Assembly (NCBI RefSeq): GCF_008831285.2
Contig: NC_045138.2
Location: 5,208,001 to 5,272,000, forward strand
Length of the DNA stretch: 64,000 nucleotides
Direction of reading: 5' to 3'
Origin: Nymphaea colorata
Lineage: Eukaryota
Shown piece after piece: positions 37,341 through 63,859 of the stretch (its first letter is position 1; every line of letters begins with the position of its first letter). The translations under genes and the position numbers were made by a program. The notes under the pieces are model-generated. The model was given only the letters and a program-made list of their open reading frames with translations. It was not told the origin of the DNA and searched no databases.

Positions 37341-37564
37341 AAACAAATAATGGGTAGGACAATGGTTGAGTTAGGCAGCGTGTTACAGCCATGTCTTCAG
37401 TTTGATTCTTGGAGGGTGTTATCCTAATGGTATTGAAAAACAATGTCGATTTTAAGATTAGTGGTGCCATTATGAGGTCAACTGGACTGGTTCTTGTCTC
37501 CTCCCCCACCCACCTTTACTCCCCTCCTTTTAGACTTCTCTCCCTTTTACTCTCTCTTCTAATT

Positions 37565-37602
<38 letters not shown>

Positions 37603-40487: not shown

Positions 40488-40857
40488 TAGGGATGCCTAT
40501 ATATCAGCTTTGGATAGAAAATCTAATCGATCTGTTTCGAAGAAATTGGATATGAAAAAGAAAAAAATATCCTATTAAGAAGTAGGATTGAATTCAGCTT
40601 TAATAATTGGCTTCCAATCAGATTTTCAGATATACATGAACATCCGGTTGGATTTGCATATGGATTGAATCAGATTTGTTATTATGCAAATATCCTATTC
40701 AGTTCAAAATGGGTCAATTTCAGTTCAAAATTCGTATTCAGATATGAATATGAAAATTATATTCAAATCAAATAGAATTTCTGAAATAGGATTCTAGATT
40801 TGGATTAGATATGGCTAAAGGTAAATCCAATTTGACTATGATCCATTGACATCCCTA
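40488..40857. mobile_element. hAT-like MITE, TAGGGATG family, upstream of TPS copy 1
   Basis: TAGGGATGCC...CATTGACATCCCTA. Confidence 0.7.
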
Positions 40858-41249
40858 ATTGTGGTTGAAGGGGTGGGTAGCTTTGTCCTTCCTTCCTTTC
40901 TTTCTCCTTGGCATATGACCAGTAGTGAGGTTAGTGGTTTCTTTTTGTGAAAGAGGCCTTAAAGATAGTTGGGTCTGCCACATGTTTCATCGTTCTATTC
41001 TTTTTCCTCTTCTCCCTTACATGCTTTGCTCAGAACATTGGCAGAAACACATGGTGGCTGGTGTGGGCCAGCTGCGACACCAACCCATTAAAATTTTCAT
41101 TGAAGCAATGAATACATTCCACATTTATACAAAGAATTATAACTTACACAAACACCATCTTTTAGTGCATTTTATTTTTGCTCAAAGAAAGTGTGTCAAA
41201 CGACTATAGCTTATGTAAGCAACATAATGTAAGATGTCACTCGTCATTC

Positions 41250-42095
41250 AAATTCTCTAACCATTATTGACACGCAATGTGCACTCGATTACGGCTCTCT
41301 ATAAGGTAGCAAACCATGTTCATAATAATGTTGAAAGGACATGTTGCACCACTTAAAGGTGAAGGGGTGCAATTACTCAAAAACGTGTAAAAAATAAACA
41401 TGGTCTTTCATAAAAATGGTTTTTAGTGGTGAGCATTAACAAATAAGTGTCGGATATAATGCCGTCAAAAACGTGAAGAAAGAATGCATTCTATCTATAC
41501 ACAAATAAAATAAAAGTACCAAATAACTATGGCTTAGGCAAGTGTCATAGTTTAATGCATTCCATTTATATAGAAAGAAAAAAGTATCAAACATTTATAG
41601 CTTACGCAAATAGCATATTTTTAAGAGATTGAAACTTATTAAAATTCTTTAACCATTATAGACACGCAATATACACTTGGATGCAGCTCTTTATAAGCTA
41701 GCAAACCATGTTCATAATATTGTTGAAACGGCAAGTAGCACCACTTAAAGGTGAAGGGGTGCAATTACTCAAATACTTGTAAAAAATAAACATGGTCTTT
41801 CATAAAAATGGTTTTTAGTGGTGAGCATTAACAAATAAGTGTCGGATTATAATGCATATCAAAAACTTGAAGAAAGAATGCATTCTATCTATAAAATAAA
41901 AGTGCCAAATAATTATGGCTTGGCCAAGTGTCATAGTTTAATGCTTTCTATTTATATACAAAGAAAAAAGCATTAAACATTTATAGGTTATGCAAACACC
42001 ATATTTTAATAGATTGAACCTAATTAAAATTCTCAAACCATTATAGACACGCAATCCACACTCGGATGCAGCTCTATATAAATTAGCAAACCAAT
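41250..42095 (+). repeat. ~390-bp tandem repeat (two full units plus a partial third) upstream of TPS copy 1
   Basis: AACCATTAT.GACACGCAAT...TATAA..TAGCAAACCA recurs at 41259, 41651 and 42036. Confidence 0.85.
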
Positions 42096-42162
42096 CCTGA
42101 GCTAAGTCATCCGAGAGGCAGTGAAAGCATTCAGCATTCAACAACAAACACACACTGTTCTA

Positions 42163-42723
42163 ATGGCTGCTCATCTTGCCTCCCTTTCCACTCTTTTTGT
42201 TACTTCCCCCAAGCTTGCTTCTAATAGCAAGGCTGGGTTCAAGCCATGGAGCACCACCCTGGTGAGATGTGAGCCAAGGGCTGAGGGCTGCGGTAGGTCT
42301 GCTGCTCAAAGGAGGCCTTCCAGATACCAGCCAAGTACATGGAACTATGACTTCATCCAGTCCATTACCAGCGCAACATCAGTAATTTTCCATACCTCTG
42401 ATCTGACTATTATTTTGTTTATTTGGGTGTGATGATGTGATCATAATTGAAAGACATGAAAATCAAAGCAGATCGAAACACAAAGGACCAGAGTCGAAGA
42501 ATTGAGAAGAGAAGTCCGACAACTTATAACATCTACAACTGAGCAAGTGGCTCAGTTGGAGCTCATCATTCACTTGAACGTTTAGGTGTAGCGTATCACT
42601 TTGAGAGTGAGATCAGGCGATCGCTAGATGCCATATCCACGAGCACTAGAGGATTTGAGGACCTCTACTCCTCTTCACTTCGGTTCAGAATTCTGAGGCA
42701 ACATGGCTATAATGTTTCTGCAG
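42163..42723 (+). CDS. Terpene-synthase-like gene, copy 1, partial (exon 1 42163-42381, exon 2 42472-42723), cut by the assembly gap
   Basis: Essentially identical to 56688-57249 except for a 1-bp deletion at ~42568 near the contig end. Confidence 0.75.
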
Positions 42724-42770
42724 GTATACATATATATATACACATGTGTTAATTCCAAAAATTGACTCAA

Positions 42771-42870
42771 NNNNNNNNNNNNNNNNNNNNNNNNNNNNNN
42801 NNNNNNNNNNNNNNNNNNNNNNNNNNNNNNNNNNNNNNNNNNNNNNNNNNNNNNNNNNNNNNNNNNNNNN
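42771..42870. other. Assembly gap (100 N)
   Basis: Run of exactly 100 N, a typical placeholder for a gap of unknown size. Confidence 1.
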
Positions 42871-45045
42871 GGAATCAAATCAATCAAGCTGGTCAATTCA
42901 GTAAAATTGGCTATTTTACAATTCAATTGATTCAAACTGTGAATCGGCAAAGGTCTATATAAAATTTACCTATTTTAAACGATAATACCAAAAACATATA
43001 TGTACAATTAAATAGGTAGTGTGGTTGTTAACCTCCTGTTCTGCCAAAATTTGGCTTAACAGTGATTCGGGTAGGATAGGTAACTTCAGTTTGATTCCAA
43101 TAATTTTGCTTTAAAGGCATTGATCCAAAGATATACATGAAAAAAGTTATGAACTTTCCAATAGAATCCTGCTAGGGAGGAGGCCTGAAGTGTACAAGAA
43201 GAAATAGCAACAAAAACTTACACACACTTTAGACGGTGTTTGATAATATGACACATTGTGTTCTTTGGAACCCAAACTTTCCTGTTCGAATGAGATGTCA
43301 AAAACAGAAGAGAGTTCTTAAAAGAAAACTCCAAAAGAAAGAAGAATTCAACAATTCTGATTCATAATTGAATTCGGATTTGGTACAGTTTTGTAACTGG
43401 GTCCGATGGATACCAGATTCCAATGGATCTGAAACCCAGCGACATGCAAAAACAACGTTGGCAGATATGGTCTGTCTCCATAGCAGAATGAATGAGCTGT
43501 CTTACGGCATGATGGTGAGGGTCTCTAGAGAAGGTAGACATGCATACAAGGATTTCTTGCTGGTTTCACACAAATTTAAGTTTTAATAATTTGACGTGGA
43601 ACAACTGATACGAGCAAAGAGGCCACTGACTGAACAAAACTAGCTAAAAGAAGCAAGAAATACTTGGGTAGAATATTTGCCTCAAGTGCAATTGTCCTCG
43701 ACTACTGGGCAGATTGGAGCTCTTCTTACAAGACCACCACAACTACTTTTCTTCCTTGATGTCGGACTATTTGTCTGCACATAGCATCTCCCTCCCCTGT
43801 CTCTCTTCATTAACACAAATAAACAATGCCACAAGTTGAAGAGAAGATGTGGGTGTGTTTTTTATCATTCTAAAAGCAATTCCATTCTCTCCTCTACTTT
43901 GCGTGAGTGTATGGCCAGCAGACAAAAGGTACTCCGTTGCAACAAATTCAAACCAAATTTACAGTATTATCATATTGGGTTTATTAGAAGTTCACATACT
44001 TAGATTCAAAATTAAGATTTGAATGCTAATGAAAGACAAGTTTATGTGAATGCAATTTTAAATTTACAGTCTGATCTAATCGATATCAGCTTTTACATTA
44101 ACATGATCGAAGTCGGAATCCAACCTTTAATTATACAATGAAATCCAGACCATATTTTCATATGTGAAAGCAGAAATTTTTTTTGTAGCAAGGGCCAAAT
44201 ATAGTTTCAAAATTTAAGAGGGGCTGAAATAAAAAAAACTTCAAATTATATATATGTAATATATATATATAATATATATATATCAAATCTGTCTAGTGAC
44301 ATTTTTAAAATCCAAATACATCCAATTTCTTAATCAGACATCAATTTTTTTTTCTTTTTTGTTTCCTTGTCTAATGCAGTCGGATATTGGATCCATCGAC
44401 AACCTTAGCTCTACCCTTAAATAGAGATTATTCATCCTCAAAAAAGAAATACCCTCTTTATTCTTGAGAATTCGTCGTCCTTAAAGAATAGGGTGCTTTG
44501 AGCTAATGAGAAAAAATAAAGATACGTTGCTTGTGCCAGTAGTACAGTATAGCCAGGGGAAAAAATTTTACATCCCTTCTGCTCTGAATTAAAATGATAA
44601 CCACTTGTAGCTTTTAAATGCGGTCACCTTAAATACGTTTGGCCTTTCTATAATTAATATCAATGTGTACAAGTACTTTTATAAACAAACACTTCTTGGC
44701 CTTTTTTCCTTTTCTTTTTACCCCAATTTTAAATTTGTTCATGAGGACATACATTTCCTTTTTCTTATACAAAGAATTTCAGCAACTCACAAGAATACAT
44801 TGGAAACTTTTCGAACACAAACTCATTTGGACAAGGACATGTTGAAAAATATTATATATAACAAAACTATTTTCTCTTTCTTAATAAATTAAACAAAGTT
44901 AGGATGATTTAAGTCAACTGCAAGTGTTTATGTGTTTTTTTAATAAAATGTTGTTGATCATGTTAATTAATGTGTAAACACTGAAGGCTTCAGCCTATGA
45001 AACAGAAAAGGTTCCATAACATGATATAACAGCACCTCAACCACT

Positions 45046-48000
45046 TTAGCCTAGGATGGATAACCTTTCCCCAAGATGGTCTCTGAGTTCGTGCGGCAGA
45101 TGGAGTGCTGGACAAAAGTAAATTACCAACTTTTCAAGCTTCAAGAGGCAGGCAATCTGTTCGTTTGCATCCATGGGACATGTTGTTGCTACTGCATCAT
45201 TTTCATTTTGGTGGGTAGTAATGTCCTCCAGAGACTTCAGCTTGGGGAAGTATTGAAGCTCTAGGTATCTCAGTTTTGGGAGGCATTGCCAGTGGCCTCC
45301 CAAGCTGATGTCCTCATAGAAATAGTTTAGGTACAATGTTTCCAGTTGGGAGAGACCCCACACCCACTGAGGCACCCTTTCCAATTAGACCTCATCAACA
45401 TTCGTGTCGCTCAAAGACAGAGACTTGAAGGAGGGTAGAAATGTTGATTCCTACGATGGCAATGGCAATGGCAGTAGTACTGCTGAGTCTGGTTCCAACC
45501 TTAACTCAATGAGGTTAGGCAGTTGCTCAAGGAATTTCCATCCCAATCTTGCACTTAGGCAACAACACACTGACAGACTTTGGAGCTGAGTCACTTGACC
45601 GTCATCCCCCACCAGCTCCAATAGAGTATCAAGCAAGGCTTCTGTCTGCATCTTTGGACATCCATAAAATTCGCCTCCCTTAACCTTGGCATAGAAGTCA
45701 ATGTTGTTTCCCCTATTCCGTCTGCTGGCCTCCCTTCCCAGTTGAGCAATCCTTCCACCATCAACTCCTCAAGTAAAGGAACGTTAACAAGAGCCTTCAA
45801 GCCATTAGGTCCGTACACCTTCAATGACTTGAGAGCAGGCATGTGATGAGGTATTTGCTCTAGGCTGCAGCATTCCTCCACCTTCAATGACTCCAAGGCA
45901 GGCATGCTAGCTATTTCACATACTGCTGGGCAATTGATGACATTTAGTACTTTCAACAAGGTAATGCTTATTAGTTTTCCTCATAAATGGCATCTTTCTG
46001 GCTTTAGTGAATGTAGCTTGGTATACTCAGCATTCAAATGCCAAGCTGGCATCTTTCCTTTATAATCACCTATCTCCCAGCACTCCAGCGCAAGTGGAGA
46101 TTCCAAGGCCTCCAGCGCACCACTCCATTCAGAAGCACCACACTGTTCGTCATTACTCTCTTCAGAAGTACCACTCTGTTCAGAAACACCTCCAGTAATT
46201 CGAAAGTAGAATTCCAAACTAATTATGCCATGCTTCTCCTTAAGCAATTGCACATTTCTTGCAAAATCAATTGCCTTTCTTGTCACCCCTAACCCTTGTG
46301 TCCCCTTTGTCATCCGTAAATTGGTAAACTTCCCCAGGCCTTCTGCTATAAATTTTAATTCCCACGTCCATTTCATCCCAAGATACCTCAAGTTGCAGAG
46401 TTTGTCCATTTCCTTGGGCAACTCTTCAATTTTACTATAATTTGAATCCAATGTTTGCAAGATACAGAGTCTGCAGATTGAACTGGGCAACCGTCCCACT
46501 TTAGAATTGCTTAGATTGAGATATTTTACAAGTGAAAGGTATTCAATGGACTTTGGCAGCTCATCCATTTCGCACCCCTCAATGACAACACTCTCAACCA
46601 CTTGAAATTGGTCAAGTGTTCAATATAAACCTGCAAGTAAGAATTGGAATCAGCCAACAATGTGCACACCTTATTTGCTGTTTCCAATTATGCTTGTGTG
46701 CCTCTGCATTGTGTACACCAAGTAATGACAGATGGCGGGTGTGCTTAGTAGTAGAGGCATGGCCATATTCCCTTCCACCTATATATAAGGCAAGGTCATG
46801 CAAAATGTGATGCAATTGGATGCTCTTCAAATCAATTTCTTCACTCAAACACCACCTTATCAAATCTTCAATGTATTGGTTTGCTGTTGCTTCAACATCT
46901 AGGCCTTCCTCAATCAATCCCTACTCATTTTCTTGGTGTGCATCATGGACCCACCATCTTAATCACAAGTGGCAACCCACCACACTTCTTTACTAATCCC
47001 TCTCCAACAAATTTGATCTTATGCATCACCAAATCTTCTTCTGTTTAGCCTTCTCTGAGAACCTCCTTCAGAAACAAGTCCCAACTTTGGTGGAAAATAA
47101 ATTCTTGTAATTCATGCATATAAAAAGCACCCATCCCCTCCGACACATATTTCTTTCTACTGGTAATCAAAATTTTCCTCCCATTGCACCCACCATCAAT
47201 GTACCCCCTATCTTTTCCTTGCACCATTTTACTTCCCATACATCATGTAGGACCAACAAAATTTTTTCCTTTCAGAGCTCGTTCTGTAATTGTGTGCATA
47301 AGTCAGTCAAGGAACAATCAGTGTTTTCTCCAGAACTCTTGCACACATCCCTTTGTATCAGCCACACCAAATCCTTATGGTTTGAACTTTCCAAAACACA
47401 AACCCACCACCTGCGTTCCCGAACTGTTGTTCAACTTCATTAATACCATGTTAGCAAGAGTCGTTTAACTGATCCCTCCCTTTCCAACAATGGAGATAAT
47501 AGAAGCACCACCCTTCTCAGTCTTACTACAAAAGTCATTCGATGAGAGCATTTCTACTAACACCTTTTTATCATTTTCCCTGCCTATGGGCAGTTGTACA
47601 CCTACGTGATGGGTTACCTCTTTGGGGTTGTCATGTTTACCATGAACAGGGTCCTTACCACCCCCTTGTGGTGTTGTTTTGAAACTATCCACCATGTCCC
47701 AATCTTTCTTTATTTTATCAAGCATTTCATTGATTTTCTTCATTTTGTTAACAAGTTGGTAACAAAAAGAAACATCTTCATAATAGGAAGAGGGCGCAGT
47801 GGTCAAAGCCCACTTCCGTAGCTGATCCCTCTTGCTGGCCTCAATTTTGCTTTGATATCCTTTGATGATGTCCTCGGCATCATAAAGAACATCCTTGTGC
47901 TCAAACTCTAGTTCTCTGTCGCAATCCTTGCTGAAAAAAGACTTGATCAGCATCTTTGATGGCCTTTAGGAAGATTTTCAGGATCCTTTGGAGCTTCTTC

Positions 48001-48101
48001 AGATCGTCTTTGGCATTCAATAAGTAGTCTTTCATCTCTTTCAACAAATTGGTTGCAGTAGAAATGGCTATTTGCACAGGAGCGTCTATTAATGCCCCCA
48101 T
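45046..48101 (-). pseudogene. CC-NB-ARC-LRR (NLR) pseudogene, copy D
   Basis: Paralog or allele of copy C with the same RNBS-D deletion and LRR TAA. It has an extra frameshift in the P-loop (GKGGIS*). Confidence 0.9.
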
Positions 48102-51100
48102 CTCCTGCAACCCCACTCCCAGTTTCTCGGTAGATTGAAGGGCAGAGGAAGAGAAGTAATTGTAAGAAGGCTGCGAACAAAATAGGCAAAAAACTGCACA
48201 TAAAGACCAGGCTGCCGAAAATTTTTCGTTGACTTATAGATTTCCACCTCCCAATGGTCTTCTCCTCAAAAAATTCAAATTGAGCAGGTAGGTCCGTTTG
48301 ATCACCACCACCACCACATTATCCTCTTGCAAGTGGTAGAGCGCTGAAGTAATCAAGTTACGGAAGAAATTCCGTCCTCAATTAGGTCAGCTGTTACTCA
48401 TTGGCTTCAGTCCTTTCACCCTGTTTTGTCAATTCCTTACACTGTGTTCTTCTTCTCTTCCAGAATAGCTACATTCATATTGCTGCTTCTTTTCTCTCTC
48501 CATTTCATTATATTTTCTTCATTCACATTAACTTTAATTCCCATCAATCATGGTGTGATCTGTTATAATACGAGAAAACATGAGAAAAATACTCATCGGC
48601 ACATTTTTTATAGGTTGTGTTAAAGAAGAAATTCAATTTCTTAATTTACTTGCTCCTAAATAATTCTGGTAGAAAATCCCCAAAGCCAAGCCTTCTACAT
48701 CCCCTAGAGTTCCCCCTTTCGGACTTGTCAGATTTCTTGTTAATCTTTTATTTCATTGATTTTATTATGTAAAAATAATTTACATATATGATCTGCAATC
48801 CAAATTTATTTAGCATAAAGTTCATATTGGACTCAGTTGCAAAAATACATATTGAGTCCAACAGCCATATCTTGACCTTTATCATAATGTTAAGATTCAC
48901 ATAAAGTAATATGAGAGAGAGAGAGAGAATGAGAACAGAAGATGATGGTTGAACCAAGTGGACAATTATATACATCTAAACGCAATGTTCAAAACTATTT
49001 TTTTATATAACAATCTAACCTTTTAGGTATTATCTTAAGAGTATTTTAGTTGTTAATAGTTGAGATTGTAAGTCTGAAGCCTTTGTACCCCATCCCTATT
49101 GTCATTAACAAACACACACACACACATTACCACTTGGCTAAGGGATAATGCCAAACCTCTTAAATTTATATTAAAAGATATTTTAACTACCCGGGCTTGG
49201 ACCCGGCCCACTATTAACAGGTCAAGCCGCACCCGGTACCGGGCGATGATAAGAATGCATGAGGCCTGGCCCATTTTTGCAGCCTCCGTGGCATCGCTTC
49301 TGCCAGACTGCCACTTCCTCCTTCTTCTTTCCTCCACCACTTCACGCTCCGATTGGACAGGCCAAACCCAACATGCTCTTCAACCACCATCCCACCTTCC
49401 CCATCTTACGAATGTCACCTGATTCAGCCCAATGGGGAACAGTCATTCACATCAGATTCATTCCAATGTAGAACAACCATCCACAAAGAGAGAGAGAGGG
49501 AGAGAGAGAGAGACAGGGTAGACTCGTGATAATGGAATCGATGAGTCCTCAAGCTGAGCAGTAGTTGGGTGGCGTCAAATGGTTTGGTTTTAAAACAAGA
49601 GGCAACAAATTGGCGATGGCATGGAAGGCACGGCCGCGCAAGCTAGGAGGTGCGATGATGGTGATGCAGCCTGGTGAGATGCCGTCGGTGAAGGAAGAAA
49701 ACGAATACTAAATCGAACTTTCAATTTTTGAAAGTTTGAAACCTTTACAAAGTAAACAGACTTCAAAATGTATTTTAAAATTAAAAATAAAAAAAATTGT
49801 TGGGCTTACCAGGCCAGCGACGAGCTGCATGTAATGTCCGATACCTGGCCCAAAAGTTACCGTGCCGGGTCTGATCATACAGGCCCATGCATATGCTCGA
49901 CTCCGTCAAGGTTGGCAATGACTCCTCCTCCTCCTCCCCCCAACCCAACTTTCTATTTTTGTTCCTTTTTTCCTTTTTTTTTTAGGTAGGGGAGGTGATT
50001 GCCCAATGCACTGGATGTGTCAGAAGCTGGAGAATTTTAGTTTTGTTTCTTTACCATTGCCAAGTGCAGCCACTTCAGTTTTGATCTTTTGCATTCATTT
50101 TTTCATTATGAAATGTCAAAGGTGGTTGTTGGATGATTCAGTTATTTGGACATTGAATATTTGTTGTAGTAAGAATTCTCTAGAAGCAACTTCATGTATG
50201 TATTCACATCTATTTTGAAGTAATGAATTTGAATGCACATTCATTACTCTGAAAAAGTTAGTTGATATGAAAAAAAGAAAAAAGCAGCACTTTAATTAAA
50301 AAAACTGAATGGGATTTATACTTAGGAAATGACTTTTGATTGGATTCGAATACGGGTTCAGTTTTAACTAAATATCCCATCATATTCTGATTCAGGTTTC
50401 CTTTCTAATTCAATTTCAAATGAATTATCATACACCCAATTTGTACGTTTTGAATATCTGTACATTCTTAACATATCATAATGTGGTTTTGCTTCTTGTA
50501 GTTAAAAGTTGGATTCAGGTGTGGATGTAAATCTAAAATCAAATTTGAATTGTGAATTTAAATCAAATTTGAATGTGGATACGGCATGGATTTTTCTTCC
50601 TTAGTATTGAAATCCAAATTCAAATTCGAATTATGAATATCTGATAAATTTGATATGGTAACATGAGATTTTGTTTGAATAAAATCCTTTAACATTCACG
50701 TGTTACTGCAATTTATTTTATTTCTTTTTCTCATTAACAAATTGTTTAGAGTCTTGGTACTGAACCACATCAAGAAAGCTCCCTCAAAAATCCTATTGAA
50801 GCTATCACATAGCTTTGTCGTTCATCAAAAATCCATAAACCTTAATTTTATTGTAGTGTGGCCAACACAAGCTTACATGCTCATTCATTATCAAGTGAGG
50901 AAGTCAAATTCAAGATCGGTACCTTTTATCTAGTCAGGTCCAAGATTAATACATACCTTGCTATTAGTTTTAGACCACTACTTTAGCCACCTTTGAATCC
51001 TTCTTCTCTTTATAAAGCATTTATTTGTCATTATATTAGCAATCCCAAAATACTGATTTTCCTTCAGAAATGCTCCTTCGACGGGATTTGAGTACAAGAG

Positions 51101-54100
51101 GATCAGGGGAGGAGCTTCCTTCATCTACTTCTTCTAGAGTAGACGATTCTTCCTCATTATCTAGGCTTCATCTTATACCTAATGATGGGAGGGGCGTCTT
51201 CTCATAATTGCCAAGATTAGATAGGATGTCTTCTTTACTATTTACACATGCAAACAAAGATTTTTTGATAGTTTCAAAAGCATTTCAAACTTTTGAAATT
51301 AAAGGCATTGGAGACTTTGCTTAGACTCTTTCTTTATGAGCTTAAGTTATTCTCTGACCTACAACAAATGTAATGATGTTGTTATAATATTTAAATCATT
51401 TTCCAAACTCGTTAATCCTAGTTTCCATCCAGGAAAGAGAATTTAAAAACGCAAAATCTCTCTTTTAATCTCTCTCCAATTTTTCTTTCTCTCTCTCTCT
51501 CTGATTTCTCTCTTTTTTTAGATCTATCTCTCTAAAATTTCTCTTTTTTCTCTCTCTCGCTCTCTCTTCAGTTCTCTCTCTCCCTTTTTTAAAATCTCTT
51601 TCTTTCTCTCTATTTATTTTACCTCTCTTTTAATCTCTCTTTTTTCTTTTTCTTTTTTTAATATTTATATCTTGGATTTCTCTATTTCTCTCTCCTATTT
51701 TTCTCTCTCTCTCTATGATTTCTCTCTCTTTTTAGATCTCTCTCTCTAAAATTTCTCTTTTTTCTCTGTCTTCAATTCTCTCTCTCCCTTTTTAAAAATC
51801 TTTCTGTCTCTCTCTCTTTCTTTTACCTCTCTTTTAATCTCTCTTTTTTCTTTTTAAACCCCCCCCCTCTTTTTCCCTCTCTCCACCCCCTTTAAACAAA
51901 TAATGGGTAGGACAATGGTTGCGTTAGGCAGCGTGTTGCAGCCATGTCTTCAGTTTGATTCTTGGAGGGTGTTATCCTAATGGTATTGAAAAACAATGTT
52001 GATTTTAAGATTAGGGTTGCCATTATGAGGTCAACTGGACTGGTTCTTGTCTCCTCCCCCACCCACCTTTACTCCCCTCCTTTTAGACTTCTCTCCATTT
52101 TACTCTCTCTTCTAATTTCTCTCTCTTTCTATTTGTATATTAAACAAAAAAAGCTCCCATTTTGCATGCCCCAAAATCATTCGACTTCACCAAGGCCAAT
52201 ACCCATGATCCTTATCATTCGGACTACACTTGGATGGCATAAAACTCATTTTTGAAAACCTTTTTTTTTAATACGCATGTTGTGGTATGAATGACTTATC
52301 TAATTTTCTTTCAAGCATAGAGAATTCTTTCTCTTTTCATTTCTTTCATATTCACCATGCATCCATAACATTCATGGATACCCACAACCACTGCTTTAGG
52401 AAACCTAAGCAAAACATGATCGAGCCTTAATAATACGGTAATAGAGTTAATAGCGGTGTTTGATTAACAGTAAGAAGGTGAAAATTTGGTATGAGTATCG
52501 GGGATAGGGGATTCCAGAACAACTACTCAAGCAAGATGATCTTATGAAATTACACAGTCACATGAAAGCTACAGTGGAGGCAGTTCTTACCCACAAGCAA
52601 GAATTTCCTGCTAGAGATATATTTTCTATGTCAGTCTAGTTTCTTATTAGCTCTTCTTCTCCTATTGATTGTGATGACGTTCTGACATGAGGTACTCATA
52701 ATTTCATTAACTTGAGATGAAATGGATATGAAAAAAAAACAGTAGACCATGAGATCCAGGGGTGAAGCCAGCAATTTTTTGTAGGATGGGCTGAACAGTA
52801 TTTGCAAAAACTATACAAGGGCTAAACAATATTTTTCAAAAATTTTACATAGGCCAATTTAAAAATTTATTAAAATGTAGGTATCAATTTTTTTTTCCCC
52901 AAAACATGAAGGGGAGGGGCCATGGCTCCTGCCAGTTCCCCCTCCTTCTGCCCCAGCCTACATCCTTACAATAAGATTATTTGGTAAATGATACTTACTA
53001 TCATGAGTGTCGCTGGTACATTGATGTATCAGCAGGATTGGCTTCCTAGTAATGCGCCATACTTGTGTTCATACATCCAGAATTTGGAATTTAAGACGAT
53101 GGCGCAAATATTCACTAATCTTGATTAAATTGTGATGAACAGTCAATAATTTATAGAAAAAAGCTTAGTTAAAAAAACTCTCGGCTGTCTTGTTATCAAT
53201 CACTAATTTTTACACGGGCTTTGCTCACCTATTTGTAAAATTGAAAAGAAAGAAGTGGATCAATGGCAAAAACATTAAAAAATTTTAACTGTACAAATTT
53301 AAATAGATTTAATTTTAGGCCATTGACATTTCCACGATTGCCAAATCCCAACCATGAAAATGCAATCTACATTATTAAATTTTTCAAACCAACAAAGCTG
53401 CTTATCATGCATATCAAACTTTAGTTTTCTTTTGATTTGGAAACATGGTTTCTACCAAGATAATATTTTCCACAAATCACTTTCTTTTTCATTCATAATA
53501 ATATGGGGAAAATGGAAAAGTGAGTTGTGAACAAGGTTGGCATCGAGAAAAAAGAAAGAAGTGAGAGAAATGTTTGAAAATGGAAATAAATCGGCTTGTT
53601 GTTCACTCTACGATAATGGAAAGAGAAGGAAAATGAAGGTAGTGCGCTACAGGCATGGTCTATGATTGGTGTTAAATAAATCCGGAAAAATTCCCAATCC
53701 ACAAACTTCTACATCACCTACACTTCCTCTTTCTCACATTTGTCGGATTTCTCATTGTATTATGTAAAAGTTTGGATGCATGATTTTTCTTTTCCAAATC
53801 CAAAATTTTATTTATCCCATCCAAGTTTCATGATCTGACCATTGACTAGAAGTACAACTTGTTCGTGCCGCGAGGGAATGCCATCGACCTTGCCAAACGT
53901 AAGGCTGAACATCCCTGTTATGAAGAGACAAAGCTGATGATGTCCAGGACTGATATTAATCCAGTTGAGCTGTTTTATTTCAACAAACTCTGTTTGACAG
54001 AACCAAGAGCTCAGAATGGAATGTGAAAGGTCTCTCTAACCATAGCAACAGGGCATGATCAAGTGGCACTAGCCACGCAAAGTTGGCTCAGACCAATTAC

Positions 54101-55007
54101 GTACTCATGGTTAGGTTTTGTTATTAGTCTTTTGACCTATTTCATTTCAAGTGGGCTTTTTTTTTTATTTCATTTCGTAGAAGTTAGAGCAAAAGAAGAG
54201 AGAAAAGCTTCACTTTGGATGCTTTCTTGATAAGTGTGTAAAATTTCTGATTTTGACTCCCTAAAGTCTATCGATAGTGGCCCCTCTTTTTTTTTTTCAA
54301 GACAGTCATTCTTTTTTTTTAAGAAATTATTTGTTTTAAAATTTTAATGGTGTCTCAGCATTAATCAGTTTTCTTGCTTTAAAACATTAAAAAAATCAAA
54401 TACCAATAATTTAACAAATATGACATAGTGTTATAAGCGAAATTATCGCTATGGTGAGAATATAATATACATGATGGGTATTATTGAATGTCTCAGAATG
54501 AGAACGTAAGTCAAACTGTTGAGAGATCAGTGAGTCCTTATGGTCTCTTATTTGTCTAATATGTGGCTTATAGCTAGAGTATTTCTAATTTTTCAACAAA
54601 ACCAGATTAGCTAAATTTAAATTTGATTCCACCAGTAAAAAAGACAAAGTGACGAGAACATCACTTTCTTTATGAAAAAAGAAGAAGAAGAAAAATTTAG
54701 CATATTTTTATAATTAAAATTTATTAAAAAATTGCCTCCACCATTTTCTAGGTTGGGCACATCTGATTATGGACCTGATTTTGAACTGTAGCTAGTAAAA
54801 AAGCATTGTGCCATTACTAATCAAATTTGTGTTCCTTTATGTTTTATGCCATATTCAGGCCCGAGTCCACTTAGTGTTACGGAGATGCAACCCAATATAT
54901 TTGGGATCATATGCTTCTTCGATCCAAATTCAGTTTTGAAAAGTAGAGCCCACATCTGAATCCCAAGTCCTCCCTAAATCCAAACCACTGGCACCCATAG
55001 TTGCGCA

Positions 55008-55379
55008 TAGGGATGCCTATATATCAGCTTTGGATAGAAAATCTAATCGATCTGTTTCGAAGAAATTGGATATGAAAAAGAAAAAAATATCCTATTAAAA
55101 AGGAGGATTGAATTCAGCTTTAATAATTGGCTTCCAATCAGATTTTCGGATATACATGAACATCCGGTTGGATTTGCATATGGATTTGAATCAGATTTGT
55201 TATTATGCAAATATCCTATTCAGTTCAAAATGGGTCAATTTCAGTTCAAAATTCGTATTCAGATATGAATATGAAAATTATATTCAAATCAAATAGAATT
55301 TCTGAAATAGGATTCTAGATTTGGATTTAGATATTGCTAAAGGTAAATCCAGTTTGACTATGATCCATTGACATCCCTA
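55008..55379. mobile_element. hAT-like MITE, TAGGGATG family, upstream of TPS copy 2
   Basis: Duplicate of 40488-40857. Confidence 0.7.
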
Positions 55380-55774
55380 ATTGTGGTTGAAGGGGTGGGT
55401 AGCTTTGTCCTTCCTTCCTTTCTTTCTCCTTTGGCATATGACCAGTAGTGAGGTTAGTGGTTTCTTTTTGTGAAAGAGGCCTTAAAGATAGTTGGGTCTG
55501 CCACATGTTTTCATCATTTTTTTCTTTTTCCTCTTCTCCCTTACATGCTTTGTTCAGAACATTGGCAGAAACACATGGTGGCTGGTGTGGGCCAGCTGCG
55601 ACACCAACCCATTAAAATTTTCATTGAAGCAATGAATACATTCCACATTTATACAAAGAATTATAACTTACACAAACACCATCTTTTAGTGCATTTTATT
55701 TTTGCTCAAAGAAAGTGTGTCAAACGACTATAGCTTATGTAAGCAACATAATGTAAGATGTCACTCGTCATTCA

Positions 55775-56620
55775 AATTCTCTAACCATTATTGACACGCA
55801 ATGTGCACTCGATTACGGCTCTCTATAAGGTAGCAAACCATGTTCATAATAATGTTGAAAGGACATGTTGCACCACTTAAAGGTGAAGGGGTGCAAATAC
55901 TCAAAAACGTGTAAAAAATAAACATGGTCTTTCATAAAAATGGTTTTTAGTGGTGAGCATTAACAAATAAGTGTCGGATATAATGCCCGTCAAAAACGTG
56001 AAGAAAGAATGCATTCTATCTATACACAAATAAAATAAAAGTACCAAATAACTATGGCTTAGGCAAGTGTCATAGTTTAATGCATTCCATTTATATAGAA
56101 AGAAAAAAGTATCAAACATTTATAGCTTACGCAAATAGCATATTTTTAAGAGATTGAAACTTATTAAAATTCTTTAACCATTATAGACACGCAATATACA
56201 CTTGGATGCAGCTCTTTATAAGCTAGCAAACCATGTTCATAATATTGTTGAAACGGCAAGTAGCACCACTTAAAGGTGAAGGCGTGCAATTACTCAAATA
56301 CTTGTAAAAAATAAACATGGTCTTTCATAAAAATGGTTTTTAGTGGTGAGCATTAACAAATAAGTGTCGGATTATAATGCATATCAAAAACTTGAAGAAA
56401 GAATGCATTCTATCTATAAAATAAAAGTGCCAAATAATTATGGCTTGGCCAAGTGTCATAGTTTAATGCTTTCTATTTATATACAAAGAAAAAAGCATTA
56501 AACATTTATAGGTTATGCAAACACCATATTTTAATAGATTGAACCTAATTAAAATTCTCAAACCATTATAGACACGCAATCCACACTCGGATGCAGCTCT
56601 ATATAAATTAGCAAACCAAT
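55775..56620 (+). promoter_or_regulatory. TPS proximal promoter built from ~390-bp tandem units; TATA box TATATAAA at 56600-56607
   Basis: Units start at 55783, 56176 and 56561. The last unit carries a canonical TATA 88 bp upstream of the ATG. Confidence 0.65.
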
Positions 56621-56687
56621 CCTGAGCTAAGTCATCCGAGAGGCAGTGAAAGCATTCAGCATTCAACAACAAACACACACTGTTCTA

Positions 56688-59193
56688 ATGGCTGCTCATC
56701 TTGCCTCCCTTTCCACTCTTTTTGTTACTTCCCCCAAGCTTGCTTCTAATAGCAAGGCTGGGTTCAAGCCATGGAGCACCACCCTGGTGAGATGTGAGCC
56801 AAGGGCTGAGGGCTGCGGTAGGTCTGCTGCTCAAAGGAGGCCTTCCAGATACCAGCCAAGTACATGGAACTATGACTTCATCCAGTCCATTACCAGCGCA
56901 ACATCAGTAATTTTCCATACCTCTGATCTGACTATTATTTTGTTTATTTGGGTGTGATGATGTGATCATAATTGAAAGACATGAAAATCAAAGCAGATCG
57001 AAACACAAAGGACCAGAGTCGAAGAATTGAGAAGAGAAGTCCGACAACTTATAACATCTACAACTGAGCAAGTGGCTCAGTTGGAGCTCATCAATTCACT
57101 TGAACGTTTAGGTGTAGCGTATCACTTTGAGAGTGAGATCAGGCGATCGCTAGATGCCATATCCACGAGCACTAGAGGATTTGAGGACCTCTACTCCTCT
57201 TCACTTCGGTTCAGAATTCTGAGGCAACATGGCTATAATGTTTCTGCAGGTATACATATATATATACACATGTGTTAATTCCAAAAAACTGACTCAATAA
57301 TTAGTTCTTAATCTAGACTGTCTATTACGAATGTGTTAATTGACACTAACCATTAAAGTTTCTTTTTGCATTTCGTAGAGTGCTTTAGTAGATTTAGGGA
57401 ACAGTCAGGCCGGTTCTCTGAGAATCTTCGTGAGGACGTGAGAGGGTTGCTGAGCCTCTACGAAGCATCACAACTAGCCTGTGAAGGAGAAACTGTGTTG
57501 GAAGAAGCTACGGCCTTCTCTTCAGAGCATCTTAGAGCAAGGATAAGCCGCATGGACCAGAGGATGTCTCGACAGGTACAGCGTGCTCTGCAGGTTCCGC
57601 TCCACAGAAGGGTTCGCAGGGTCGAGGCCCGAGAGTATATTGAGACATTCGAGAGGACGGACCGCAGAAGCCAAGTGCTGCATGAGTTTGCTAGGCTGGA
57701 CTTCAACATGGTGCAGACAATCCACCAAAGAGAGCTCAGGGAGTTATCCGGGTACAATTCATTCTTGCACTTTTGCCTAAATAACTTGGTTAATAGTTGA
57801 TAATAATGCAGCAACTAATGTCATTCTATGTATATATGTATATCAGTAATGAATATCTTGTATGTTACATTGTTGCTGGCCTGCATCATTGGGTCCATGA
57901 ATAATCAACCATGAGTCCTTTGTTTTGGGTGTTTGCAGGTGGTGGAGGGACTTGGGCTTGGGCGAGCACATTAGCTTCGCCAGAGATAGGCTGGTGGAGA
58001 GCTACTTCATGGCGGTGGGGAAGATGCATGAGCCACAGTTCTCACAGTACAGGATGCAACTCGCCAGGGTCTCGTACTTGATGGCCACCGTTGAGGACAT
58101 CTTCAGCGAGCATCAGTCTGTTGAGGAGCTCGAACGCTTTGTGCAAGTTGTTGAGAGGTAAAGGATGATCATGGTTGATGAATTAGAGAGAGCAACTCTG
58201 TCTCTAGTTTCTGCTTCACATTGTTAGGAGCCAATGAGGATGCTCTATATTGTATATACGCAGGTGGGATCTTCAAGCGGCAGAGCAGCTGCCTCAGTCA
58301 CTGAGGGTCTTCTATGCGGCTGTCTACAACACAACCAACCAGATCAGCTACACTGTTCTTAGGAGGCATGGCCGTGATATCACTTCACACATGAGGAGAG
58401 CGGTACGACACTTTCTCTATGAAATATTTCTTCTACTCTTCACATCATCACATTAGTATATTAGCTTCACTTTCTAATTGACTTGCTCTCTTCTACTCTT
58501 GGGCAGTGGGTGAGTGTGTGCAGAGCTTACTTGGTTGAAGCAAGGTGGCACCGTGCCCGGCAGACACCAAGGCTAGAGGAATATTTGAGCAACATCCGGG
58601 CAGCCATGACCGGCCCTATTCTCCTCCCTGCCTACTTCTTCCTCTCCCAAAACATTGAGGAACAAGCAATCCAGCAGCTGCAGAATGACTCCAACATCAT
58701 CAACTTCTCATCGATGATAGTTCGTCTCTCGGCAGACCTCCAGAGATCCAGGGTTAGTTTAGTGTATTTTCTGCTGGTTAACTAGTATTAGCTTCTGAGT
58801 TGACAATGTTCTTGTTCTGTTTTTTTTTATTTGATTGGCTGATGATCTTCTCTTTATATGTTGAACACTTGATCGAAGGTTGGATTCGGGAGAGGGAACC
58901 TGCCTAGATCGGTCCAGATTTATATGAACGAGGCAAGGGTAGCGGAGGAGCAAGCACGGCAGCACATAAGGAAGTTGCTAAGGGATGCATGGAGGAGGCT
59001 GAACAGGGAGCTGCTCTCTGCTCAGCAGCAGCAGCAACAGACCGCCTTCTCTCGTTCCTTCATGAACGTGGCTCTCAACATTGCGAGGGTCTCCCAGTGC
59101 ATGTACGACTATGAAGATGGCGTCGGTGTCTTGGAGCATGAGTCCATGGACCGTATCTACTCTCTCATTGCCGAGCCCATCCAGACTGCCTAA
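56688..59193 (+). CDS. Terpene-synthase-like protein (TPS-b-like, predicted plastid transit peptide, 587 aa) lacking DDxxD and NSE/DTE; exons 56688-56906, 56997-57249, 57379-57751, 57939-58157, 58264-58402, 58507-58752, 58879-59193
   Basis: RRx8W (RRPSRYQPSTW), LELINSLERLGVAYHFESEI, LRFRILRQHGY, GLLSLYEAS, ARLDFNMVQ, FARDRLVE, AYLVEARW and LEEYL. Class III 7-exon layout with GT-AG introns; exons total 1764 nt, in frame to TAA. Confidence 0.92.
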
Positions 59194-59589
59194 GCAACTG
59201 TTTCCCAATCTATCAACCATGTTGGTGCCCATTAACCGAATCCTACTTATGATGCTATGTATCATCATGTAATAAAATGGGTACATTAATAAATTAAATT
59301 CAGTACTCTCTCTCTCTTTATCTTTATCTCTCTCTCTCTCTCGCGGTCACATGTATGCACACAGTCATAATTTCCCTTATATCTATACACCTCATAAAGC
59401 ACTTCTTGTGGTCGTCTCTAAAGATTTGGAACCATCCTCCCTTGCTCAAGCCGTTAAGCATCAATGTTGGTGTGACGCCATGGCTGCTTAATTTAAAGCA
59501 CAATAAGAGAATGAAACATTAGATTTGGTGCAAACTCTAAAAAACGTAAAACCATGGGGAATAAGAGGGATGCATTCTAAGGCTTTCTT

Positions 59590-59780
59590 ACCTTGCATCC
59601 TTGAGGGCAGCCGGCAATAGTTCCAGCTTCCTCTGGAGGTTGATGAGATCGTCTTTCGCATTCAAGATGAGGCCGACCTTTTCTTTCAATAAACTGGTGA
59701 CGGCTTCCAAAATAACAGAAAGAGCGCTTCTGCAAGTAGGTCCATTACTAACGCCAACCTCCTCTGTTTCTTGGTGGACG
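59590..59780 (-). pseudogene. NLR N-terminal coiled-coil fragment
   Basis: SVILEAVTSLLKEKVGLILNAKDDLINLQRKLELLPAALKDA matches the copy C/D N-terminus (NAKDDLKKLQR...AIKDAD). It is frameshifted relative to the ATG at 59745, and the upstream leader is also similar. Confidence 0.7.
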
Positions 59781-61522
59781 GGAAGAGCAGAGGAAAAGAA
59801 TCAGAAGTGAAGAAATTCGGCAAATTAAGGAAGAGATCAAACTTATAAAGGTGAGCAAGTGGACTCTCGCTTTCTTTTAACTCAGAAAATTAAATTTCTC
59901 AAGTTGCTGAGTTTATGAGAGAATATATCTTTAAGGGTCCATTTGTTTGCTTCCAATCAGAAGCTTTACCGATTTGGACTATGGTGAGCCCATAGGCTTC
60001 TATGCACACCGGCAAAGTTTCATATATTTTTTCTGCCAAACAAATCTGGGAAAAATGTCTCAATCCCAATCTTGTACAATTCCCTTTTCTCACGTTTGCA
60101 TATTTCTTTTTCGAGGGTTTTCTTCTATCCTATTTTTTCTCTTCTCAAAATCACAAAGCTTATTTAGATATCAGGCTTGGGCAATTTATGGTTCTTGCAC
60201 CAAGGATTGGATAATAAGATACAACTCTAACCTTCTGCCCAAAATTGCTGACCCAAGACGAGACAGGAGAGGAATGGATATGTAAATTACTTGATGTTAA
60301 AAATATTTTCTTCCCATGCTTCCTAACTTTTAACATATCGAATTAAAATTAAGTAATTTGGTATATATCCAATTGGATAGTAAATTCAAAATAAAATAAA
60401 GCTAAATTTATATATCCAAATCCAAATTTAAATATCTGAGTCCAATCCATAGTTAAAATCGGAGTTTCAATATACATCAAATCCAAAGTTATTACAACTA
60501 AAAATGTTCTCAAAGTTCTAGATCTGGACCCGGTTCAAAGTAAGGGTGTTTTCATATACAACAACCGTCCTTTATGTTTTTATGATGTAATCTTCTCACC
60601 CACCGTTTTGCATAGGGCTAAGTATATAAACTCCCTCAGCGCCTTATGTTGCCCTTTAGTTTATAAAAGGAGCTAAGAGGGCATTTGGCAATAGAGACAC
60701 TTTGTGAGTGACCTACAAATCTACACCAAAATTATAGAAGGTTCATTGGACACTAGAGCTATTGGTTCATGACCTTTATCAATTTTCTGGGCAGATTCAT
60801 GGAACCTTCACAATCAATGCTACCCCTCAAAGGAACACATTGCTCACATGCAGTCATTCATTATTTATTAAAATATTAGAATGACATTTTTCAATTAATA
60901 AATTTTGTTTCCATAACAATTTAAGAGCAACAATATTTCCTAATCAACGTCCTAATAGTTTGAAAATTCTTAGAAGGAGTAATCACCCCAAATTTCCTAA
61001 AATTCAATATTTATCATTTTCCAAACATTTCATGATAACAACTGCCTCAGCCCCTGCCCCACTTCCAACTCTATAGCAAACTTGGCCATGCACCCACCAA
61101 ATGGGTGTCGCTTTCAAACATACACCTGCCATCGCCACTGTCTCCACAAGAAGTGGAGAAATCCTGCATTTCTTCACCACTCGCACAGCCCAGTTCTTTC
61201 TTTTGACCATGTCCTGCAAGGTTATCTGAAGATCCCGGGAGAAGACGGCATTTTAGAACTGCCGCATCTGCTGTCGTAGGCACAAACCTCGCCAGAGAGG
61301 GCATTCCAAGCGTGATTTTCTCTGGAGCGCATTTTTGGCTGGAGGCGATTCAGAGGTCGAGTAAGGTGGCGTTGGATTTGGGCACGTGTCTAGTATTCTT
61401 TATCTATTTTTCAGATTTTTTGGACAGTCTGTGAAGAGATACAGAATTTACAAGTGCCACAGATTTCTAAAGGACCCTGCGACCCAGACTCTCTTCAGCT
61501 GGGAATCTGCAGTGTCAATATC

Positions 61523-63640
61523 ATGGCTGACACTGCTGGATCAAATCAAAGAGATAAAACATTCAAGGGAGCCAAGTCCACCGAGCATAATACCCTGAAA
61601 ATCAAAGAGATAAAACATTCATGGGAGTTTTGCGAAGGCTGCTCAATTGGTTCTTAGTGGAAAATCAAAGGCATGATATATTAATGGGAAAATCAAAGCT
61701 CCAACCACTACTGATCCCAACTATCATGAGTGGGAATCAGAGAATGGCATGGTTATGGCGTGGCTGCTCAACTCTATGGAACCATCCATAGCAAATCTGT
61801 TTACATATCAAGATACTGCTTGCGGAATATGGGAGGCTTTAAAAGAACTTTACAGTGAGCAAAATAATCTTGCTCAAGTATACCAGATACAATGCAAGAT
61901 TCCCAATCTCACCCTCCATGACCAAGATGTGCAGCAGTACATTGGGATACTCAGGATTCCATATGATGAGCTCCTCCAATATCGACCAGCGACCTCTGAT
62001 CCAGTCATTTACGAACAACATTTTGAAGAAGATCAAATCTTCAAGGTCCTCGTTGGATTGAGTGAGGACTATGAAGCCATAAGGACTCAAATCCTGAATA
62101 CTATGCCGCTGCCAAAATTCAATGCTGTTTGTCAAATGATTCAGAGAGAGGTGTCAAGGCGAAGAGTCATGAGCGTCCCTCCTAAAATGGACGCCATAGA
62201 AGACAGCCAAAAAAGAATGGTGTGTCTTTCACAATCGGGCACTAATCAAGGCATACAAAGGTACCACTCAAACACACAGAAAAATCACAGCAAACTTAAG
62301 TGTACTCACTGCAGGAAATTGGGTCACACACGCGATCGCCGCAGGGAACTTGTGTTTCTACCAGGGAAGGAAAAGGGATCTTCTTCAATACCAGACAAAG
62401 ACATCAACCTTGCAAACTTTGTCAGCAAAGATGAGTGACGTCTCAGAAGGTAAGTTCTGTGCCTTATTGACTGACACTAAAAATAAATCCTCGATAGTTG
62501 ATTCTAGTGCCACTGATCACATGACTAATGATCCCACAAGACTTGCCGATCTAAATAAGGATCTTCATCGTTCTGTTTTTTCTGCTGTTGGGTCATCTAT
62601 GGTTGTTCCTGGCATTGGAAAAACATTCTTCGAGAAAAATATTAGTTCCGCTTTACTTGTTCCTTAGCTTGCTATCAACCTTATGTATGTTAGCAAAATC
62701 ACTGAAGATTATAATTGTGTGGTTATTTTCTCCAAGAAGGTTGTAACATTTCAGGACCCGAGCACGAAGAAGGTGACTGGTAAGGTTCGATGCCATGGTG
62801 AACCCTACACTTTGGACACCGACAGTTTGAGTTGATTCACCAAACCAAAATCTACTCCAAGGAAGGACTATCAAATTTGACATGATTGATTAGGACACAT
62901 ATATGAATGGAACCTCAGTTCCCTCATCACTTCCCTCACCATTGATGATAATAAAGAATGTAATGCATGCGAATTCGCCAAATTCACATGCCTCACCTTC
63001 TTGCCGATTCATGAAAGGTCTGAAAAAGATTTCAATCTCATTCACTCGGATGTTTGGGGACCTGCTCCAGAGGACTCTCATGCCGGTTTTAAGTTTTATG
63101 TCTCTTTCATTGATGATAAGACTCGTGTAACTTCGATTTATTTTTTCAAAAATAAGAGTGAAGTTCCAAAAAATTTTGTAGAATTCTGTGCCCTCATTCT
63201 CCCTCAATATGTTGCTAAGATTAAAATGCTTCGCTTTGACAATGGTTGTGAATATGTGAATGATGCATTGAAAAACTTTATGAGGAAGCATGGAATACAG
63301 CCCCAATGTACCTGCACCGGGATGCCTCCGCAAAACGGCATTGCAGAAAGAAAAAACCGACAACTTCTGAATATTGCTCGGGCTTTTATGATGCACATGA
63401 ACGTACCTCAGACAACTTCTGAATATTGCTCGGGCTCTTATGATGCACATGAACGTACCTCAGATTTTTTGGAGCGAAGCCATTGGGACAGCATGTTATG
63501 TATCCAATCGAGTTCCAAACTCTAGAATAGAAGGAAAAATTCCCCTTGAGCAACTTCTCAATAAGCAGCTGTCACTTGAACACCTCAGGGTATTTGGGTG
63601 CAAATGTTTCGTACTTGTGCAAGAAAGATTTAGAAAAAAT
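61523..63640 (+). mobile_element. Degenerate Ty1/copia element (gag, protease, integrase), truncated before RT
   Basis: gag VMAWLLNSMEPSI, broken zinc knuckle CTHCRKLGH, protease IVDSSATDHMT and integrase LIHSDVWGP...PPQNGIAERKNR, with multiple stops and frameshifts. Confidence 0.88.
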
Positions 63641-63859
63641 TCCAGTGATTACATGGTCTACTTTAACTACTATATTGTTTGTCAAGTATTGCTTCAAACT
63701 TAAATTATTGTTATCTATACATTCATTTTTTTTTTTGGGTCTGTGATGTAATATATTGTAGTCAACTATTTAGAATCAAGTAGTAGTATCACGTGCATAT
63801 CATTGTGCATCTTTGGACTCCCATTTCCAGTGGTGGAGATAGGAATTTCTGGTTAAGTA

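Follow-up and report, generated by a model that had tools for sequence, protein, structure and literature searches.

We found that a gene of the TPS-b type in the water lily Nymphaea colorata encodes a terpene synthase (TPS)-like protein whose mature region is nearly free of lysine, is enriched in arginine and glutamine, and carries degenerate versions of both metal-binding motifs of the family. The gene lies at 56688-59193 on the forward strand of a 64,000-nt stretch of contig NC_045138.2 (positions 5,208,001 to 5,272,000 of NCBI RefSeq assembly GCF_008831285.2), which we refer to as the window and whose numbering is used throughout; seven exons separated by six GT-AG introns give a spliced length of 1764 nt and 587 aa, with no internal stops. 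Read together with published seed expression data, the sequence makes it fairly probable that the protein is a pseudo-enzyme co-opted for nitrogen storage in the seed perisperm, with amyloplasts as its probable location.

The mature region, taken from the RR at residue 50 (nt 56835), is 538 aa long and contains 2 Lys (58021-58023 and 58972-58974), 71 Arg (13.2%) and 43 Gln (8.0%), with 3 further Lys in the presumed transit peptide; these counts and codon positions had all been given exactly in an original prediction made from the letters of the window. We set the composition against that of other open reading frames (ORFs) of the window and of database proteins. Among 281 more distantly related TPS proteins (a set that includes P0046, one partly frameshifted Nymphaea model), Lys makes up 6.0% of the aligned mature region on average and 2.7% at the least; with these two frequencies, the binomial probability of finding two or fewer Lys in 538 residues is 1.7e-12 and 6e-5, respectively. 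Reference enzymes were 119 of 150 database matches (P0011-P0160), chosen by a length of 520-640 aa and possession of a DDxxD motif. Lys (z -6) and Asp (z -4.2) in the window protein lie below, and Arg (z +12) and Gln (z +7) above, the values of all 119 references, and its longest Lys-free stretch is 282 aa compared with a maximum of 112 aa among them. TPS-b enzymes have 5.9% Lys, 5.5% Arg and 3.5% Gln, against 0.4%, 13.2% and 8.0% here. Trp, Cys (0.7% versus 1.55%), Gly and Asn (z -1.8) are also low. The outcome is a protein with 1.576 nitrogen atoms per residue (references 1.384 +/- 0.018, maximum 1.428) and 18.7% nitrogen by mass (16.7% in references), in which Glu-family residues make up 32.3% versus 20.0%, and Asp-family residues 19.1% versus 30.7%. 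Such a nitrogen-rich, Lys-low composition, dominated by Arg and Gln/Glu, is what would be expected of a seed storage protein. The net charge is +5, against -18 +/- 5 in references, with a computed pI of 9.0. Relative to expectation there are 41 additional Arg and 30 missing Lys, so Arg was gained at non-Lys sites too; this excess and an inserted Gln run mean that the change goes beyond a charge-keeping swap. Biosynthetic cost placed the protein at the cheap end yet within the reference range and was not used. Counts of the ageing-prone dipeptides NG, DG, NS, DP and DS were too small for a test.

The pattern of lysine loss supports the proposal, already made in the original prediction, that selection acted on the mature protein. 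None of the 20 alignment columns that are Lys in at least 50% of the references is Lys in the window protein, 15 of them now being Arg, and 19 of 21 reference Arg columns are retained; the change from Lys to Arg is read from column frequencies and one tree. P0126, a Nymphaea TPS-b paralog with both metal motifs intact, has 40 Lys and 27 Arg; an equally Lys-poor intact paralog, which would have refuted the prediction, was thus not seen. Its Lys positions are retained in 0 of 40 cases in the window protein, half of them now being residues other than Arg. The reading frame contains the triplets AAA and AAG (AAR) twice, against counts of 19 and 14 in the two alternative frames, and the position-wise base content of the gene itself predicts 24.7 Lys where 2 are seen. 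The N-terminal region has kept 2-4 Lys both in the window protein and in all six clade relatives examined, and retention in the transit region differs from that in the mature region (Fisher p 0.005).

Under a neutral account, GC-biased mutation or gene conversion would have turned AAR codons into AGR codons in a decaying, amplified array. The gene does have a third-position GC content (GC3) of 0.62, compared with 0.38 in the pieces of a SNF2-type gene elsewhere in the window, AGR codons specify 50 of its 71 Arg, and many of its relatives are fragment copies. The original prediction had regarded GC bias as a poor explanation, and we reject it, because AAR triplets are scarce in frame only, and because a higher GC3 cannot give a pattern in which Gly+Ala+Pro is not elevated (z -0.7), Phe, Tyr, Met, Ile and Asn together are slightly low (z -1.7), and Glu and Gln codons, which likewise have A at the second position, are enriched. 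Lys is moreover the commonest new residue among within-clade differences (28 of 252 site-variants, mostly single-copy), so mutation and drift seem to push toward Lys. Other ORFs of the window, used as controls, have counts of K43/R45 (SNF2 pieces), K69/R48 (copia sequences) and K48/R22 (NLR sequences). We conclude that the neutral account is largely refuted and highly improbable.

We also found that the motifs needed for terpene synthase catalysis are lost, a feature that the original prediction had missed, along with the extent of Lys poverty across the whole family. The DDxxD column reads Glu334, Asp335 and Ser338, where 119 of 119 references, a set chosen for DDxxD, have three Asp; the NSE/DTE column reads Ala477, Asp478, Arg481 and Gly485 in place of Asp or Asn, Asp, Thr and Glu; and Met occupies column 306, otherwise a conserved Trp. 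The loss is clade-wide, with Glu334 in 20 of 20 aligned proteins, Ala477 in 17 of 17, Arg481 in 15 of 15 and a DDxxD motif of the form E-D-x-x-G/S, so that four of the six metal ligands are changed both here and across the clade. In class I terpene synthases, loss of such ligands should abolish substrate ionisation. The window protein is therefore likely to be catalytically dead, as far as its sequence can tell. The RRx8W motif, the RxR motif (Arg297 and Arg299) and Arg474 are kept, the latter Arg columns being diphosphate-binding. Of the two remaining Lys in the mature region, Lys515 is specific to this copy, Asn occupying the site in 9 of 11 aligned clade proteins. Lys310 (58021-58023), which lies four residues past the lost Trp, is found in 16 of 18 clade proteins, compared with 3% of enzymes that have Lys there, and may mark a kept function.

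The class I helical terpene synthase fold is predicted to be retained. A model of the C-terminal domain of the relative P0051, built from a 105-row alignment, has a pLDDT of 86 and TM scores of 0.89-0.93 to solved synthases (0.89 to 3n0f); its alignment consists mostly of enzymes, which draws the model toward an enzyme fold. A single-sequence fold of the relative P0304 was uninformative (pLDDT 41). The predicted fold and the kept RRx8W, RxR and Arg474 could be taken to mean that the protein is still an enzyme, acting in the metabolism of the seed or seed coat through a chemistry that is new or needs no metal, with a composition of secondary importance, and authors of a seed transcriptome interpret their TPS transcripts as terpene synthesis or modification (10.1101/2021.04.04.438399). 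Continued enzymatic activity does not predict the compositional sweep and sits poorly with the clade-wide change of metal ligands, and we consider it improbable.

The window protein belongs to a clade of 27 Nymphaea gene models, P0010 among them matching this locus; many are partial or redundant and therefore do not count as independent. The nearest proteins come from N. colorata and N. thermarum. P0010 is identical to the window protein over residues 216-483, P0051 and P0303 each show 2 differences, and the full-length N. thermarum protein P0304 shows 42, with 6 Lys, 63 Arg and 1.534 nitrogen atoms per residue. In total, 6360 well-aligned mature residues of the 27 models contain 57 Lys and 731 Arg. 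Support for the clade is 1.0; its stem measures 0.76 substitutions per site, and the distance from root to tip falls within the normal range of enzymes. It nests among monoterpene-synthase-like proteins, is not sister to P0126 and has an unsettled sister group in a tree built without a TPS-a or TPS-g outgroup. P0304 and P0126 align at 39% identity with few gaps, and this low gap count, together with the enzyme-like root-to-tip length, supports constraint on the clade. No clade member outside Nymphaea appeared among the named matches, a weak negative as other Nymphaeaceae are perhaps poorly represented; Nuphar advena has 26 TPS-b transcripts and Euryale ferox 1 (PMC7015852 Table S21). The P0010 model fuses residues 216-483 to a gag sequence 75-83% like 61499-61961 of the window, which is probably a gene-model error.

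The transcript depth of close relatives is very high and very uneven between runs. We obtained depth data from 4 of 24 listed runs (X1, X12, X19 and X21). In X1, 3027 of 150515 contigs fall on the gene, their summed depth averages 5.3e5 across 12 exon-only bins and drops to 0 in the bin contained within intron 3, and the joints are spliced; in X12, which is RNA on record, contigs are likewise spliced and the mean summed depth over the same 12 bins is 6.3. At the positions given here, introns 1-4 and 6 are absent from spliced contigs of close relatives, and intron 5 is absent from one X12 contig. Depth in X19 is even across introns and exons, as in DNA, and X21 provided 30 partial reads; neither informs on expression. 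Lack of expression would have spoken against the original prediction; transcripts of close relatives are spliced and abundant, and the exact copy may itself be expressed. The six-Gln run is a stretch of CAG codons inserted with respect to the enzymes, and a contig of X12 carries one additional unit.

Published data place TPS transcripts of high abundance in water-lily seeds. In N. thermarum, a TPS10 homologue is among the top ten transcripts of seeds at 7 days, and several terpene-related transcripts are at 15 days (10.1101/2021.04.04.438399); 'a subfamily of terpene synthases' was seen in situ in perisperm and endosperm (PMC12619087). Reads from microdissected N. caerulea tissue, mapped to N. 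colorata, give four TPS loci values of 14.8-16.0 in perisperm, 7.3-8.1 in endosperm, 9.9-10.6 in embryo and 0-0.85 in leaf (PMC12825398; values taken here as log2). These loci rank 2-5 among 150 rows of the perisperm-preferential sheet, behind one unannotated gene, and stand level with granule-bound starch synthase at 15.9; a fifth TPS locus reaches 10.9 in perisperm and three further ones 0. Lysine-ketoglutarate reductase/saccharopine dehydrogenase (LKR/SDH) is perisperm-preferential (10.7 versus 5.6 in leaf), glutamine synthetase and pyruvate, phosphate dikinase (PPDK) appear in the same sheet, and cupin storage proteins are absent from it, vicilin-like genes marking embryo and endosperm instead (PMC12825398). 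The four profiles are nearly parallel, with perisperm minus endosperm differences of 7.5-7.8, as expected if near-identical copies share reads. Because of these parallel profiles, because three of the loci bear very high locus numbers and near-identical clade copies lie on small scaffolds, and because the clade is the sole near-identical multi-copy TPS set that we saw, the perisperm-high loci are likely to be the Lys-poor clade. Three unannotated entries, Nycol.F01219 (MSTRG.10122, the sheet top at 18.5), Nycol.K00358 (MSTRG.15567) and MSTRG.6710, have leaf values of 0 and a TPS-like profile (PMC12825398 Tables S3 and S4) and could represent additional copies or different reserve proteins. We found nothing relevant in the available parts of PMC12177460 and PMC9407493, the latter, on Euryale seeds, giving no figures for composition there, and no terpene terms in those of 10.1101/2023.11.30.569347.

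Three options had been offered in the original prediction: nitrogen storage, chemical avoidance of Lys and nutritional defence. Nitrogen storage, although unproven, fits best with the extra Arg and Gln, the lost motifs and the published perisperm expression of TPS loci, and Lys avoidance of a chemical or nutritional kind may add to it. In the scenario that we favour, a gene for a plastid monoterpene synthase would have acquired strong perisperm expression; Mg2+ binding would then have been lost, and the compact helical fold and import peptide retained. Selection would have raised nitrogen per residue through fold-neutral swaps, replacing Lys with Arg (two more nitrogen atoms at the same charge) and adding Arg and Gln elsewhere, which, where Lys catabolism is expressed, would make the protein draw less on Asp-family and more on Glu-family amino acids. 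Gene amplification would have increased the dose, and at germination degradation of the protein would nourish the embryo. As the loss of Lys is near-total and exceeds what nitrogen gain would call for, a second Lys-specific pressure, either a short Lys supply or the avoidance of amine cross-linking, probably added to the first. A multi-gene family, as expected of seed storage proteins, is present in the 27 clade models. A bolder form of the same reading, to which we give slightly less than even credence, is that in water lilies a terpene synthase gave rise to a seed storage protein peculiar to these plants, imported into amyloplasts as the main nitrogen reserve of the perisperm, with all ancestral Lys removed and Arg and Gln doubled on an unchanged fold, and that the >80 TPS-b genes of N. 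colorata largely reflect dosage amplification and not scent diversification.

Several observations weigh against a storage role. Pure nitrogen gain predicts neither the reduction of Asn, which has two nitrogen atoms, nor an unaltered His content, nor the replacement of 5 of the 20 conserved Lys columns by Glu, Glu, Ser, Met and His, four of which are nitrogen-poorer. Known seed storage proteins usually go to the endoplasmic reticulum (ER) and vacuole and not to plastids. The promoter scan of 1.5 kb upstream found no GCN4-like, prolamin-box, RY or G-box elements above chance. Clade gene models are mostly fragments, the contig carrying the intact P0126 is the same size as that carrying this locus, and chromosome 1 carries three curated TPS-b genes (PMC7015852). 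As for expression, X1 is of unspecified tissue and its RNA status is a software guess, summed contig depth reflects expression poorly, its scale in X1 lacks a housekeeping comparison, and the contigs of both X1 and X12 derive from relatives of the exact window copy. The published seed loci were connected to the Lys-poor clade by indirect argument and not by sequence or identifier, and MSTRG.260 and MSTRG.19641 are not in the available single-nucleus marker tables of PMC12825398; the gene neighbours of MSTRG.260 gave no link to this locus. The N. thermarum authors relate their transcripts to the import and storage of nutrients and to the differentiation and maturation of the seed coat (10.1101/2021.04.04.438399), and the perisperm has been described as starch- and oil-filled (10.1101/2023.11.30.569347). 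Our literature search found no water-lily seed proteome, and accumulation of the protein, its location, its inactivity and its breakdown at germination are predictions of this reading.

Some of the same features could arise if the protein were a non-catalytic binder or structural protein exposed to amine attack by reducing sugars, aldehydes or tannin quinones, or one that coats starch granules or membranes; Lys would then have been removed to prevent cross-linking, Arg would keep the charge, and the gain in nitrogen would be a by-product. This would account for the loss of every P0126 Lys, half of them to residues other than Arg, for the low Cys and Trp and for the shift in net charge, and the kept Arg297, Arg299 and Arg474, the change of Thr481 to Arg and the new Lys310 hint at a kept site. 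Arg is itself targeted by dicarbonyls, which counts against protection of this kind, and the doubling of Gln, the Gln run and the gain of Arg at non-Lys sites are left unexplained. In favour of this reading, the perisperm is reported to abound in flavonoid and phenylpropanoid pathways (10.1101/2023.11.30.569347). On balance we consider an amine-protected binder unlikely, although less so than the other alternatives to storage.

A role in defence is another such alternative, either as an anti-nutritive seed protein that holds nitrogen in a form poor for animals or as one that a lysine desert shields from ubiquitin-dependent breakdown. Residues essential to animals (HIKLMFTWV) make up 36.8% of the window protein, under all 119 references (45.5 +/- 1.5%). 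Many insects, fish and birds require Arg in the diet, which argues in the other direction. Neither a signal peptide nor an extra domain is seen in the translation or by Pfam, and a plastid-imported mature chain would be mostly beyond the reach of cytosolic ubiquitin, the part exposed before import being that which retains Lys. Lysine deserts have been described in toxins and in proteins of the ubiquitin system (PMC13696103), and the 282-residue Lys-free stretch is a feature shared with them; the cases reviewed there concern evasion of ubiquitin or Pup, and the words 'storage' and 'glycation' were not found in the available main text. We regard a defensive role as improbable.

The closest comparison to the favoured storage reading comes from storage proteins derived from enzymes or inhibitors, namely patatin, the soybean vegetative storage protein (VSP) homologues of acid phosphatases, poplar bark storage protein, narbonin, concanavalin B and the cupin globulins. 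These share a pattern of an enzyme fold, reduced or lost catalysis, a multi-gene family and very high expression in a reserve tissue, a likeness that we propose extends to the water-lily clade; they differ from it in having other folds and in being mostly secretory or vacuolar, and the window protein falls into none of their families. Cereal prolamins and zeins offer a second parallel, as a Lys-poor, Gln-rich reserve in a starch tissue, the maize endosperm, with LKR/SDH and PPDK, both genes of which occur in the perisperm sheet. Prolamins are repetitive, Pro-rich, hydrophobic and located in the ER, whereas the window protein is globular, charged, Arg-rich and Pro-poor, and its gene is without prolamin-type promoter boxes. 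Only terpene synthase domains passed the Pfam cut-offs in the encoded protein, with no cupin or prolamin-superfamily domain. None of the storage proteins derived from enzymes or inhibitors is known to us to come from a terpene synthase or to have undergone a near-complete Lys-to-Arg sweep on a kept fold.

In its architecture the gene agrees with active enzymes. Citrus limonene synthase (5uv0), poplar isoprene synthase (3n0f) and P0126 share with it seven exons, RRx8W, RxR, both Pfam domains and a presumed transit peptide; angiosperm TPS-b enzymes reach 45% identity over the mature region, with E values of 1e-70 for the best PDB matches. The window protein differs from TPS-b enzymes in its degenerate DDxxD and NSE/DTE, its changed active-site Trp column and its reversed net charge. 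N. colorata has >80 TPS-b genes, most of them without both catalytic motifs, and a curated chromosome-1 member of 588 aa, NC1G0288560, equals 587 aa plus a stop and is by size a candidate for this gene (PMC7015852). No role for the motif-less copies, and no mention of lysine, was found in the available text of that paper. Motif loss and seed expression have thus each been published already; the compositional sweep, and the joining of all three, were not found in the literature. Nor did our search of the literature, with most subscription papers outside it, turn up a storage protein that derives from a TPS or any account of the Lys depletion in this clade. Our reading is a testable answer to the puzzle of why the TPS-b genes of N. 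colorata mostly lack catalytic motifs. If true, it would give seed storage proteins a new origin, located in an early-diverging angiosperm, within a maternal tissue described as storing starch and oil, and possibly within plastids; the terpene synthase gene counts on which explanations of water-lily scent draw would have to be revised. The protein also offers a clear natural case of selection on amino-acid composition that spans an entire folded chain, for which the intact paralogs and the transit peptide act as internal controls.

Feature coordinates are given in Table 1. Terpene synthase Pfam domains (PF01397 N-terminal and PF03936 C-terminal) are matched by 6 of the 7 exons, and the length, position and composition of the putative transit peptide fit plastid targeting.

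Table 1 Features of the TPS-b-type gene and its partial second copy, in window coordinates.
Feature	Position	Strand	Remarks
TATA-like box	56600..56607	+	88 nt 5' of ATG; from sequence, motif scan; X1 coverage starts in bin 56600-56690
Presumed plastid transit peptide, N-terminal 49 aa	56688..56834	+	Ser/Thr/Ala-rich; 3 Lys, 3 Arg
Exon 1	56688..56906	+	Intact RRx8W at 56835-56867
Exon 2	56997..57249	+	Terpene_synth N-terminal domain PF01397, E 8.5e-24; no Lys
Exon 3	57379..57751	+	Terpene_synth N-terminal domain PF01397, E 2.8e-19; no Lys
Exon 4	57939..58157	+	RxR kept (57982-57990); Met306 in active-site Trp column; Lys310 at 58021-58023
Degenerate DDxxD in exon 4	58093-58107	+	Reads E-D-x-x-S
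Exon 5	58264..58402	+	No Lys
Exon 6	58507..58752	+	No Lys; degenerate NSE/DTE begins at 58732 (Ala477, Asp478, Arg481)
Exon 7 and stop	58879..59193	+	Gly485 replaces the NSE/DTE Glu; copy-specific Lys515 at 58972-58974; six-Gln run at 59023-59040
Partial second copy, exons 1-2	42163..42770	+	Near-identical, 1-nt frameshift; stops at 100-N gap

The partial second copy belongs to a direct duplication of 11.8 kb at 95.9% identity (30956-42770 and 45548-57297), the first copy of which ends inside the TPS gene at a 100-N gap (42771-42870). Only 3 differences, one of them a frameshift, separate the duplicate copies over about 1 kb around exons 1-2, and the duplication may be an assembly overlap or a haplotype and not a real tandem copy. 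Upstream of the gene, a direct repeat with a period of about 390 nt and 82% identity (55654-56618, and again at 41130-42093) ends at the TATA box; no tandem repeats were reported in 54500-60000. The TPS-like gene sits within a tract rich in NLR genes and retrotransposons. Broken NB-ARC/LRR copies occur at about 14700-18100, 24500-25500, 30500-33700 and 45000-48300, interleaved with the duplication, and degenerate copia-type retrotransposons lie at 18756-20944 and 61499-63700. The 3' part of a SWI2/SNF2 chromatin-remodelling ATPase gene (SNF2, Helicase_C and SnAC domains) is found at 4003-6942 on the forward strand, directly preceded by a copia-type element at 3-3389 on the reverse strand.

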